This document shows, in pieces, positions 6,979 to 9,480 of a stretch of 64,000 bases of DNA. The notes below the pieces were generated by a model. The model did no database searches. It was not told where the DNA came from and was given only the letters and a program-made list of their open reading frames with translations. How positions within the stretch are numbered: the first letter of the stretch is position 1; every line of letters begins with the position of its first letter. The position numbers were made by a program, and so were the translations under genes. This DNA comes from Anaerolineaceae bacterium (GTDB lineage: Bacteria > Chloroflexota > Anaerolineae > Aggregatilineales > Phototrophicaceae): the NCBI GenBank assembly GCA_002699585.1, contig PABP01000009.1, forward strand, positions 419,750 to 483,749, written 5' to 3'.

Positions 6979-9480
6979 ATGACAACGACGCAAATTAATC
7001 TACCCATCACAGGCATGACCTGTGCCATGTGCGAGAAAAATGTCAACCGCGCGTTATCGCGTACCGACGGCGTGGCCGAGGTCCAGCTCAATCTGGCGAC
7101 CGATAAGGCGCTGGTCAACTTTGATAAATCCACGACTGATTTACAGTCGCTCATTAAATCAGTGGAAGCCGCGGGGTATGGTGTGGCGACCGCGTCCATC
7201 GACCTGCCCATCACGGGCATGACCTGCGCCATGTGCGAGAAAAATGTCTCGCGTGCGCTCAATAAGCCCGATGGCGTCATTGACGTGCAGGTCAACCTCG
7301 CGACAGAACGTGCCCATGTCACCTATGTTCCCGGCGTGGTTCGTCGTAGTGACCTGATTAAAGCGGTTGAAGCGGCGGGCTATGGTGTCGTCGATACGGA
7401 AAATGTTGAATTGCCAGAAGATGCCGAAGCTGCTGCCCGTGCTGCTGAAATTGAGCGTCAACGGCGCTTGGTCATCATCGGCGCGATTTTCACCATCCCG
7501 CTGGTGATTCTCAGCATGACGCGTCACTTTATGCACCAGATTCCCATCATCATGCAAACTGTGCCCTGGCTGGCCGACAACGCCTGGCTGTTCATCTTTG
7601 GCGCGATGGCCACCCCGGTCTATGTCATCCTTGGACGCCAGTACATCACCGGCGCGATCAAGTCCGTTCGGAACGGTACGGCTAACATGGACGTGCTGGT
7701 CGCCCTGGGGTCGTCTGCTGCTTATCTGTATGGGCTGGTCGTGTTGCTGGGGATTGTCTTTAGCTTCAGCGATGTTGTCGGCACGGATGACTACTTCGAG
7801 TCCTCGGCGGTGATCCTGACGCTGATTACGCTGGGTAAACTGCTGGAAGCGCGTGCCAAAGGCCACACCAGCGATGCCATCAAGAAGCTGATGGACCTGG
7901 CGCCCAAGAAAGCCATTCTGCTGCGCGATGGCCAGGAGCAGGAAATCGCCGTAGATGATGTCGTTCCCGGTGACCACCTGGTTGTTCGGCCAGGGGCCAA
8001 TGTGCCTGTCGATGCTGTCGTGGTCGAAGGCCGTTCCAGTGTGGATGAAGCCATGCTGACGGGCGAGAGCATGCCGGTCAATAAAACAGTAGGCGCGGAT
8101 GTCATCGGCGGGACGGTCAACAAGCAGGGTCGCCTGATTATCGAAGCCTCGCGTGTTGGCTCGGAGACCGCTCTCGCACAGATTATCCGTTTGGTGGAGC
8201 AGGCCCAGGGGTCGAAGGCACCTATCCAGCGTATCGCGGATCGTGTGTCATCCTACTTTGTGCCAGCCGTGCTCGTCCTGGCCGTGATTACTTTCCTGGG
8301 TTGGTTGCTGATTGGCCAGATTGGCCTGCCGACAGCCACGCTGCACGCTATCGCCGTGCTGGTGATCGCCTGCCCGTGTGCGCTCGGCTTGGCCACCCCG
8401 ACGGCCATCATGGTCGGGATGGGGCGTGGCGCTGAAATGGGCATTCTGTTCCGTAACAGCGAAGCCCTGGAAAATGCCCATCGCCTGAATGCGATTGCCC
8501 TCGACAAAACCGGGACGATCACGCAGGGCCAGCCGCAGGTGACGCAGGTCGTCAGCGAAGGGTTATCCAAAGATGAGCTGCTGCACTTGGCGGCATCGGT
8601 GGAACGTGCCAGTGAGCACCCCTTAGCTGAGGCCATCGTCCAGGCAGCCAAACATCTGACTCTGGCTCAGCCTCAGAAATTTGAGTCGGTCGCAGGCAAC
8701 GGTGTCCAAGCCCTGGTGGAGGATCGCCAGGTTTTGGTCGGCAGCCCGCGTTTCATGCAGGAAAGCCAGATTGACCTGGAGACGCTTGCGAAGACCATCA
8801 CAGGCGTACAGGACCAGGCCCAAACAGCGGTCGTCGTCGCAGTCGATGGCATCGCCCAGGGTGTGATAGGCATCGCCGATACGATCAAAGCCACGTCACG
8901 GCAGGCCATCGCTGATTTGCAGGCGCTCGGTCTGGAAGTGGTCATGCTGACAGGCGACAACGAGAAAACGGCCAAGTCGATTGCGGCCCAGGTGGGCATC
9001 ACCAGCGTCGTCTCGGAAGTGGTACCCGGTGAAAAAGTGCAGGCGGTTCAGCGGTTGCAGACCGATGAACGTCGCGTGGGTATGGTCGGTGATGGCATCA
9101 ACGATGCCCCGGCCCTGGCCCAGGCTGATGTCGGCATCGCCATTGGTACTGGCACCGACATCGCTATTGAAGCCAGCGATGTGACGCTCATGGGTGGCGA
9201 CTTGGCAGGCGTCCCGCGTGCGATTGCCCTCAGCAAGGCGACCATGCGCACCATCTACCAGAATCTGTTCTGGGCGTTTATCTACAACCTCATTCTAGTC
9301 CCGGTAGCGATGTCCGGCAACCTCATCCCGATGTTCGCCGCAGGTGCGATGGCCTTCTCATCAGTCTTCGTTGTGACAAATTCTCTGAGACTGAGAGGTT
9401 CATCGTTACCGCTTGCTCAGGATTCCGCTCCAGATAGTGTTCAATCGTCTCGTGCTGCTTCATCGGCACCTGCGGCTTAG
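6979..9480 (+). CDS. copA: copper-translocating P1B-type ATPase with two N-terminal HMA domains
   Basis: Two [14 protein letters not shown] motifs, TM CPC motif [22 protein letters not shown]. The ORF tail after NSLRLR (about 9405-9480) is encoded antisense to the recombinase gene and is probably not native. Confidence 0.95.

Follow-up and report, generated by a model that had tools for sequence, protein, structure and literature searches.

The copA locus

The window analysed here is a stretch of 64,000 nucleotides from an Anaerolineaceae bacterium of the phylum Chloroflexota (assembly GCA_002699585.1, contig PABP01000009.1, positions 419,750 to 483,749), in which copA, the gene of a Cu+ P-type ATPase, and the gene of a large serine recombinase (LSR), designated LSR1, converge from opposite strands and share their 3′ ends (9323-9480, 158 bp). 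A sequence-only reading of this DNA had noticed the overlap, which the list of open reading frames (ORFs) confirms, and had proposed that an LSR-bearing mobile element had entered copA at its 3′ end. Both proteins are 100% identical to database entries from a metagenome-assembled genome of an Anaerolineaceae bacterium. The present analysis concerns this element, a composite island of 37.2 kb (approximately 9375-46595), and the gene end that it entered. Related loci, contigs and proteins are referred to by handles such as L001 or P0003. The features on which the argument is built are the following, with coordinates in the window.

6979-9480, plus strand: copA ORF, 833 amino acids (aa), Cu+ P-type ATPase (Pfam HMA twice, E1-E2_ATPase, Hydrolase)
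6979-9372, plus strand: host-encoded portion of copA, up to the crossover (Pfam; collinear with L001 and L032)
9375-9480, plus strand: element-borne surrogate 3′ end of copA, encoding (V)TNSLRLRG, a 26-aa tail and a stop (AGA codons; kept at other left junctions; antisense of LSR1)
9323-11632, minus strand: LSR1, large serine recombinase, 769 aa (Pfam Resolvase and Recombinase; fold match)
46593-46700, plus strand: displaced native 3′ end of copA, 35 residues and a stop, host DNA from about 46596 (tblastn with native CopA tails; host-type codons)
46725-46751, plus strand: native intrinsic terminator of copA, an 11-bp stem (6 G-C pairs) with a T-run after it, 25 bases past the displaced stop and now 37 kb from the gene

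Solved CopA structures show homology to the C-terminus of the window's CopA as far as LRLRG and no further, and the CopA of Legionella (LpCopA, 3rfu), which ends 3 residues past this point, is practically without a tail; the last 26 residues of the window's CopA are therefore an appendage. This appendage is the reverse strand of LSR1 codons ~718-745, in agreement with the earlier suggestion that the CopA tail is non-native and antisense to the C-terminal coding region of LSR1. The overlap of the two genes is explained mechanically, by two ORFs each reading over a recombination junction, and statistics are not needed to account for it.

The displaced native end of copA

A tblastn search with the C-terminal peptides of relatives that have different tails identified a second copy of VVTNSLRLRG at 46593 (46593-46622), encoded as GTG GTG ACC AAC AGT CTC CGC CTG CGC GGC, host-type in its codons from ACC onwards, and followed by KKIVGDTPSAATSNELQPASAGAGD and a stop. 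When position 9372 is spliced to 46596 the resulting CopA end is collinear with that of P0003, a 78%-identical and uninterrupted CopA with the same upstream genes. The genes upstream of copA, DUF302 and CsoR, are collinear in L001 and L032. In L001, the closest relative without the recombinase, whose CopA is 91% identical, DNA synteny with the window stops at ~9393 and resumes at 46591. Owing to the displacement of the native tail and its terminator, and to this break and resumption of synteny, copA is seen to be split by an insertion of 37.2 kb, and the integration of an LSR-bearing element into its 3′ end is thereby borne out. No terminator comparable to the native one was detected 3′ of the hybrid copA stop at 9480.

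Crossover point and attachment sites

At the left junction of island and host, attL, the codons read GTT GTG ACA AAT TCT CTG AGA CTG AGA GGT, and although they differ from those of the right junction, attR, given above, both sets encode the identical 10 residues (VVTNSLRLRG). The surrogate end contains 2 AGA arginine codons, as compared to 0 AGA, AGG or CGA codons among the 34 arginine codons of the host portion of copA. As AGA is absent from host copA, and as the copy at attR is contiguous with the native tail, the helix-end copy at attL is foreign and that at attR is host DNA. Element-type codons (AAT TC[TC] [CT]TG A[GA]A [CT]TG AGA) recur at attL of L002, L004, L005 and L007, and the V-F-V-V codons preceding this stretch vary freely across the same four loci. 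CopA is host-encoded up to the first Val of VV; both the last 8-9 residues of its final membrane helix and the 26 residues of the tail come from the element. On the other side, the DNA to the left of the GTGGTGA of attR (GGGGAACTT) is unlike copA.

The sequence-only reading had placed the left junction at 9400-9480, which implies that all of CopA's last helix is encoded by host DNA and that one ORF tail is a chance read-through. The geometry of the ORFs fits such a placement, the copA alignment with L001 continues to 9393, and the tails of LSRs do vary by chance; however, a second helix-end copy, in host codons, runs directly on into the native tail at attR; AGA, which host copA lacks, is used in the attL copy, and this copy is conserved with the element and not with the host; and the alignment to 9393 reflects shared amino-acid coding and not shared origin. 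We regard this placement as highly improbable, the left junction mapping to ~9373-9374, that is, 30-100 bp away. One ORF tail has indeed been extended by chance over the junction, and it is that of LSR1. Residues 1-753 of LSR1 are encoded by the element and residues 754-769, together with the stop, are read from host copA in antisense (9323-9373). In LSR1 homologues the C-termini agree as far as ..N[LYS]S, past which their length and sequence vary with the host. Of the last ~27 LSR1 codons, previously described as antisense to the CopA helix, it is consequently only the final 16 that lie opposite host DNA of the helix, and the 9 preceding them are antisense to a copy of the helix end that belongs to the element. 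Before integration the LSR1 frame would continue for ~66 more residues through the attachment site of the element, attP (PQVPQNKKPHRLRRLNLAVLKP...), and this extension is partly kept in a second genome as PQIPRNEKSHRLRRLNLAVLN.

Base-by-base assignment to host or element at attL and attR brackets the crossover to 9370-9377, and the attachment sites were delimited as follows.

9373-9374: central dinucleotide GT of attL1 (inferred from the base-origin bracket and the attP symmetry centre)
46596-46597: central dinucleotide GT of attR1 (inferred from the base-origin bracket and attP symmetry; L001 similarity resumes at 46591)
~9375-9406, plus strand: attP1 right arm, the first ~32 nucleotides (nt) of the surrogate end (attP reconstruction)
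~46564-46595: attP1 left arm, with conserved ..GCGGCGGAGACGATGG..TTTCT.ATTT.G.GGAA.TT, mirroring the right arm

Our best estimate of the crossover is a GT, that of the second Val codon in FVVTNS (9373-9374 and 46596-46597). The arms of the reconstructed attP match at 17/32 positions in the window and at 20/32 in the L013/L005 genome, as compared to 8 expected, and in both genomes the symmetry is best at offset 0, on this GT (15/30 and 18/30, as against at most 12-14 at other centres). ACGATG (distal) and GAA.TT (proximal) are present in both arms, each equally far from the centre in the two, while the arms of the host site, attB, are weakly symmetric (9-10/32). What attL and attR have in common is limited to the core and to similarity imposed by coding, and long direct repeats are not present. 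Three more attR sites (L013, which is from the same genome as L005; L012, on the same contig as L007; and L042) consist of the conserved left arm followed by a copA-tail remnant. On L012 a second, degenerate copy of the segment that forms the right end of the first element, together with the left arm, lies ~640 bp beyond attR1 (558-696), which suggests a fossil junction of an earlier island.

Apparent constraint on the surrogate end

The element-borne end is read in two frames, and its variation was compared across four attL sequences. In the CopA frame 1 of the 6 residues of NSLRLR is variable, as compared to 3 of the 6 opposite LSR1 residues, the substitutions among element copies preserving the CopA residues as NSL[RK]L[RK] while altering those of LSR1. 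In the tail the pattern is different, 11 of 20 variable sites falling at CopA codon position 2, which is the wobble position of LSR1. Since variation in the tail concentrates at the LSR1 wobble position, the tail is a by-product of LSR1 coding sequence, namely the antisense of its C-terminal domain. It is probably irrelevant. The surrogate helix end, in contrast, looks to be under constraint in the CopA frame, with the reservation that the sample is small. Indirect pointers towards a functional hybrid CopA are the end of structure homology at LRLRG, the tail-less LpCopA and the wide occurrence of the hybrid form, and the hybrid protein would presumably remain functional.

Half-sites of attP and attB are often related in LSRs, and it may be argued from this that the helix codons exist only since the right arm of attP must mimic attB DNA for binding of LSR1, with no selection acting on CopA. 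The right arms of attP and attB do share 15-20 of 32 bases. Against such an explanation, the same 8 residues are encoded by different codons at 6 of 8 positions between the arms, and element copies keep the CopA residues while the LSR1 residues change, which points to a constraint at the protein level in the CopA frame. DNA mimicry as the sole reason for the helix codons therefore seems rather unlikely to us, although mimicry and constraint in the CopA frame are not mutually exclusive.

A second element nested in the first

The composite island comprises two elements. The first, E1 (~13.5 kb), contains LSR1, a gene for a helix-turn-helix protein (HTH_17), McrBC and an insertion sequence (IS), and has its right end at 46595; the second, E2 (22549-46311, ~23.8 kb), contains LSR2, restriction-modification (R-M) genes and HerA/FtsK-like, DUF927 and ParM-like genes. 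The boundaries of E2 are marked by the following features.

22538-22548: left copy of the 11-bp core ATGTATCAGTA, left E2 junction (similarity of LSR2 homologues ends here)
46301-46311: right copy of the 11-bp core ATGTATCAGTA, right E2 junction (ParM-locus comparison)
22509-24572, minus strand: LSR2, second large serine recombinase, 687 aa (Pfam Resolvase; BLASTP 34% identical to LSR1)
46312-46595: right-terminal segment of E1, 284 bp, ending in the attP1 left arm (found only in copA-associated composites)

The 11-mer ATGTATCAGTA occurs exactly twice in the window (22538 and 46301), as compared to 0.01 expected. On the left, similarity among LSR2 homologues ends at 22543, right after ..CTGTACTG, and the last ~11 codons of LSR2 extend out of E2 into E1. 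For the right end, a scan of the genome collection with the ParM-like protein returned 22 loci with homologues of 67-97% identity, and in ~20 of them, which are all those aligned over the boundary, the shared DNA on the ParM side ends at ..GGTGATGTATCAG (46311) and gives way to three unrelated classes of flank. E2 is nested in E1 because the 11-bp repeat brackets E2, the ParM-side DNA ends at 46311 and LSR2 similarity ends at 22543. The segment 46312-46595 is present in full in L013, in part in L012 and also in L042, and is missing from typical E2 loci; as it is found only in copA-associated composites and ends in the left arm of LSR1, it represents E1's own right end.

The arrangement first favoured was a tandem accretion, in which E1 (9.4-22.5 kb) and E2 (22.5-46.6 kb) would lie side by side at copA and the 46.6-kb junction would belong to E2. 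Both recombinase genes have the same orientation, each at the left end of its own block, and the order LSR1-cargo-LSR2 recurs in 4 genomes (that of the window, L002, L005 and L007), as such an arrangement would have it. It was dropped when neither a copA fragment nor the conserved LSR1 left arm was found at the E1/E2 boundary, where the flanks agree only between the window and L002 and over ~22 nt. In addition, the core repeat brackets E2 at 22538 and 46301, the 284 bp leading up to the copA tail are missing from typical E2 loci and conserved in copA-associated ones, where they end in an arm symmetric to the LSR1 right arm, and the LSR2 family otherwise targets a gene other than copA. We therefore hold tandem accretion to be very unlikely, and the earlier view that the first island ends near the second recombinase gives way to the nesting of E2 in E1, with the right end of E1 at 46595.

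The usual target of the LSR2 family is a conserved 626-aa gene without a Pfam domain, on whose 3′ end LSR2 genes converge and which they overlap (L006, L008; 10001-13865). The cargo of the LSR2 island in L006 comprises an MmeI-type R-M system and an SNF2/PLD helicase, and that in L008 DISARM DrmE, PLD and a PIN toxin-antitoxin pair, while an LSR2 gene of 91% identity is present in both settings, at the 626-aa gene (L006) and inside E1 (L002). Removal of E2 would restore a small minus-strand ORF, MKIPDCIRSGEVSLYDILRASMALPTQLRGRYSCTDTCLSPHWVSA (46300-46415 joined to 22510-22548), the end of which (..SCTD) resembles the ..CTD end of LSR2 proteins; by this resemblance the landing site of E2 in E1 may derive from an LSR2-type gene end. 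Searches for inverted LSR2-arm copies, by which E2's right end was to be located, gave chance-level matches only, and an alignment of the 560 nt upstream of all ParM homologues was uninformative as their start offsets differ.

Recurrence of the island in other genomes

In all 7 other loci inspected (L002/L003, L004, L005, L007, L009 and the P0142 contig) copA faces a convergent LSR1 homologue (62-88% identity) that overlaps it, by 56 to 164 bp. The cargo differs per genome, being McrBC in the window, Wadjet JetABCD in L002 and L007, WD40 proteins in L005, type III CRISPR on the P0142 contig and MobA/TraG in L009. Of the 120 CopA cluster representatives that are closest, 42 have hybrid tails (28 of the window type and 14 of the L005 type), and a few more of these clusters look like further variants of hybrid tails. 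The CopA extension, which had been taken for a one-off accident, is instead borne by the element; orthologous copA genes do carry it, but not as a native trait, as the recombinase stands next to copA in every such locus inspected. LSR1 homologues ending in ..SPH* or ..PPH* were considered as free (attP) forms and rejected, as P0141 and P0142 also overlap copA.

The frequency of such tails (35% of the closest CopA cluster representatives) and the constant position of the recombinase could be taken to mean that the CopA of this clade naturally has an SSLPLAQD... tail next to a resident or domesticated recombinase, with no recent insertion. This is extremely improbable in our judgement, given that a complete native tail with its terminator is stranded 37 kb downstream, that in two other genomes, too, such a tail lies at the island's far end, that the cargo between the ends differs in every genome, and that close relatives have an uninterrupted copA. 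Uninterrupted alleles are represented by P0003/L032.

The recombinase LSR1

In the LSR1 sequence Pfam Resolvase was matched at residues 29-176 (E 3.5e-9), with the nucleophile Ser motif present, and Pfam Recombinase (PF07508) at residues 224-330 (E 5e-10). An AlphaFold2 model based on an alignment of 98 sequences has a mean predicted local distance difference test (pLDDT) score of 82 and shows a helix at 149-184 followed by a mixed alpha/beta domain. Foldseek aligned it over ~600-650 columns with full-length serine integrases (9dxf, 9iu2 Bxb1, 9tep PhiC31 and complexes of integrases with recombination directionality factors; E 1e-17 to 1e-11), and with the A118-type LSR-DNA complex 4kis (E 2e-7); the catalytic domains of TP901-1, Sin and gamma-delta resolvase were matched as well. 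The sole disordered part of the C-terminus is residues 745-769 (pLDDT <50), which is the portion opposite the surrogate helix end plus the host-derived tail.

The usual zinc-ribbon cysteines are missing from LSR1, with a single Cys in residues 360-580. In the model beta strands at 373-415 and 549-579 flank a long helical hairpin (437-535), and on this basis the zinc-ribbon fold is probably retained without zinc ligands. The ~190 extra C-terminal residues are modelled as two three-helix bundles. Two copies of a ~45-residue three-helix unit (W..E[ED]..L..L....Q.EI.AALP.R.W.AIR.K) follow the integrase core at ~585-712, LSR2 having one such unit, and weak Foldseek matches to SNAPc suggest that these units may be Myb/SANT-like DNA-binding repeats. 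LSR1 is presumably active and the element presumably excisable. Directly upstream of LSR1 lies the following gene.

11752-12009, minus strand: HTH_17 (excisionase-type helix-turn-helix) gene (Pfam HTH_17, E 6e-12)

Its position and strand are the same in L002, L004, L005, L007 and the P0142 contig, and in L009 it is found nearby on the opposite strand; its product is a candidate directionality factor or regulator.

Cargo and other genes of the island

The remaining genes of E1 and E2 that could be assigned are listed below.

12825-16180, plus strand: McrB-like AAA_5/EVE protein and McrC, type IV restriction, E1 cargo (Pfam AAA_5, EVE, McrBC at E 2e-50; PADLOC)
20773-22442, plus strand: IS in E1 with its transposase split over two frames (Pfam DUF772, DDE_Tnp_1_6)
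25191-27991, minus strand: type II methyltransferase and BsoBI-like restriction endonuclease, E2 cargo (Pfam; PADLOC MTase_II at E 2e-160, REase_II)
35994-38915: HerA/FtsK-like ATPase, E2, of a plasmid-like module with the ParM-like gene
39713-42688: DUF927 protein, E2, of the same plasmid-like module
45083-46252, minus strand: ParM-like actin gene at the right end of E2 (Pfam ALP_N, MreB-like_C)

By annotation the cargo consists of recognised anti-phage systems, namely McrBC and the type II R-M pair in the window, Wadjet JetABCD and type III CRISPR in related islands, and DISARM and MmeI-type systems in LSR2 islands. The IS with the split transposase adjoins the left E2 junction, and the corresponding position in L005 is taken by another IS (DUF4277). 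Two paralogous ORFs of ~297 aa, which are 51% identical, are located one in each element (16283-17430 in E1 and 28360-29517 in E2), and neither has a Pfam or PADLOC match. Each is preceded by a conserved leader of ~200 nt that is also present upstream of a 296-aa ORF in L007 (306-1460); the leader copies at 29 kb and in L007 contain a hairpin and a T-run, and there was no Rfam match at gathering thresholds, either for the leader or in a scan of 9-47 kb. A same-strand run of E2 genes (29609-35640) encodes an Hsp70-like ATPase, an SPFH/Band 7 protein, two small proteins, a DnaJ-domain zinc-ribbon protein and a 184-aa ORF; it has no PADLOC match and may represent an uncharacterised chaperone-like module.

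Discussion

Taken with the displaced gene end, the element-type helix codons, their recurrence and the nesting of the two elements, it is very probable that LSR1 inserted a 37.2-kb composite island into the last helix codons of copA and rebuilt the end of the gene in doing so, with E2 nested in E1. LSR1 would cross over at a GT in the codons of the last transmembrane helix of copA, the attP of the element being situated inside the LSR1 gene's 3′ end. To the right of this crossover, the strand opposite LSR1 would provide an in-frame replacement for the part of copA that is severed, and because the element carries (V)TNSLRLRG in its own codons, CopA would keep an intact final helix while gaining a new tail. 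The native end of copA and its terminator would thereby be pushed to 46593-46751, and LSR1 would lose whatever followed attP in the free element, to end in 16 residues that are antisense to copA. E2 has integrated at a landing site near the right end of E1, where it is flanked by the 11-bp core repeat.

A number of observations weigh against this reading or limit its precision. L001 was rejected as a clean empty site, its copA being followed by an esterase gene and a second copA-tail remnant, and no same-strain empty-site allele was found in the comparison. When the attP junction (GGAAYTTGTGGTGASWAATTC) was searched for in metagenome and viral contigs, 8 unrelated chance matches and one more attR (L042) came back, with no excised form. 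The exact crossover is derived from symmetry and base origin and not from a same-strain attB, so that the GT at 9370-9371 is also possible, the left arm of L012 is degenerate (7/32 symmetry), the codon-position comparison covers 4 sequences only, and LSR1 gave no Zn_ribbon_recom Pfam match even at E<=5.

In L001 (12353-13809) copA with a different tail (GKKIDRTASHGNEQSAMKTVQQVG) is followed by the esterase gene, after which comes a second tail remnant that is complete (FVVMNSLRLRDKKIGGGSPSTATLNELQPAQVGAGD); this has the appearance of a fossil left by an earlier insertion at the same position. In the window the homologue of the esterase is found 3 kb beyond attR (49819-50781). All 7 contigs with the uninterrupted copA allele P0003 are shorter than 10 kb, and L032 and L033 end within ~20 nt of the copA stop, as if assemblies were breaking at a variable site. 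The tail remnant of L001, the second arm on L012, the contig breaks of P0003 and the lack of an excised form or a same-strain empty site point to a long-used hotspot with fossil junctions.

The placement of attP within the recombinase gene, opposite a copper-regulated gene, might be a regulatory device and not an accident, which we think unlikely. Integration would in this case exchange an LSR1 extension of ~66 residues for 16 host residues, giving two states with different recombinases, and with the copA terminator removed, copper-induced transcription of copA would read antisense through LSR1. If true, the stability or excision of the island would be coupled to its integration state and to copper stress.

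That an island can enter a gene end and repair it is already known in principle. Phage 21 and e14, which integrate in icd of E. coli, carry an alternative in-frame 3′ end, so that the gene stays functional and its native end is left as a remnant. The copA island shares with them the in-frame substitute end and the native remnant at the opposite junction; it differs in that theirs are tyrosine integrases with a longer region of identity, whereas the surrogate end described here is antisense to the recombinase gene. SCCmec and other staphylococcal cassette chromosome (SCC) elements, mobilised by the serine recombinases CcrAB or CcrC, are inserted at the 3′ end of rlmH (orfX), where the reading frame is kept, and they have variable cargo and form composites at one hotspot. 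Serine-recombinase islands, variable cargo, the last codons of a conserved gene and composites at one hotspot are thus features of both systems. SCC composites, however, are tandem arrays at regenerated attB sites, while here the second element occupies a separate landing site within the first and belongs to a different recombinase family with its own usual target. Context related to SCC elements is available (PMC10581047).

The serine integrase of Bxb1 integrates into the 3′ end of groEL1, and its lysogens have a GroEL1-linked biofilm defect (PMC1470463). LSR1 resembles it in being an LSR with short att sites and a non-palindromic central dinucleotide, and in entering the 3′ end of a conserved housekeeping gene with a changed host C-terminus as the result; in contrast to Bxb1, the copA element rebuilds the end of the helix that it cuts, its attP is within the coding region of the recombinase itself, and it is a defence and plasmid-like island and not a phage. 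In mycobacteriophage BPs and its relatives attP is inside the repressor gene and immunity is integration-dependent (PMC4557955). Common to them and the copA element are an attP within a coding region and an integration that alters the C-terminus of an element-encoded protein, but in BPs this protein is a repressor, the enzyme is a tyrosine recombinase and the shortening has a regulatory role, whereas here it is the recombinase itself that is altered.

Site-specific LSR clades that target one conserved gene cluster feature in the census of Durrant et al. (PMC10083194), and the LSR1 family agrees with those parts of it that are drawn on here in that diverse LSRs (in this instance down to ~57% identity) share one conserved site in coding sequence. 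In the same parts of the census copA is not among the examples, and its genomes are largely those of isolates, as compared to the Chloroflexota metagenome-assembled genomes of this study. Literature searches for LSRs targeting copA found nothing specific.

Insertions of this kind are known, but the copA island is unusually well resolved and unusually widespread. It provides a mapped set of attB, attP, attL and attR for a previously uncharacterised Chloroflexota LSR clade with one conserved natural target, together with a second recombinase that has a landing site within the first element, and such sets of att sites are raw material for genome-engineering integrases. It also carries a warning for annotation, in that roughly one in three of the closest CopA entries in databases has a hybrid end, the final ~35 residues being those of a mobile element. 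For the biology of this phylum, it documents copA as a hotspot for the exchange of defence systems, among them McrBC, Wadjet, CRISPR and R-M.

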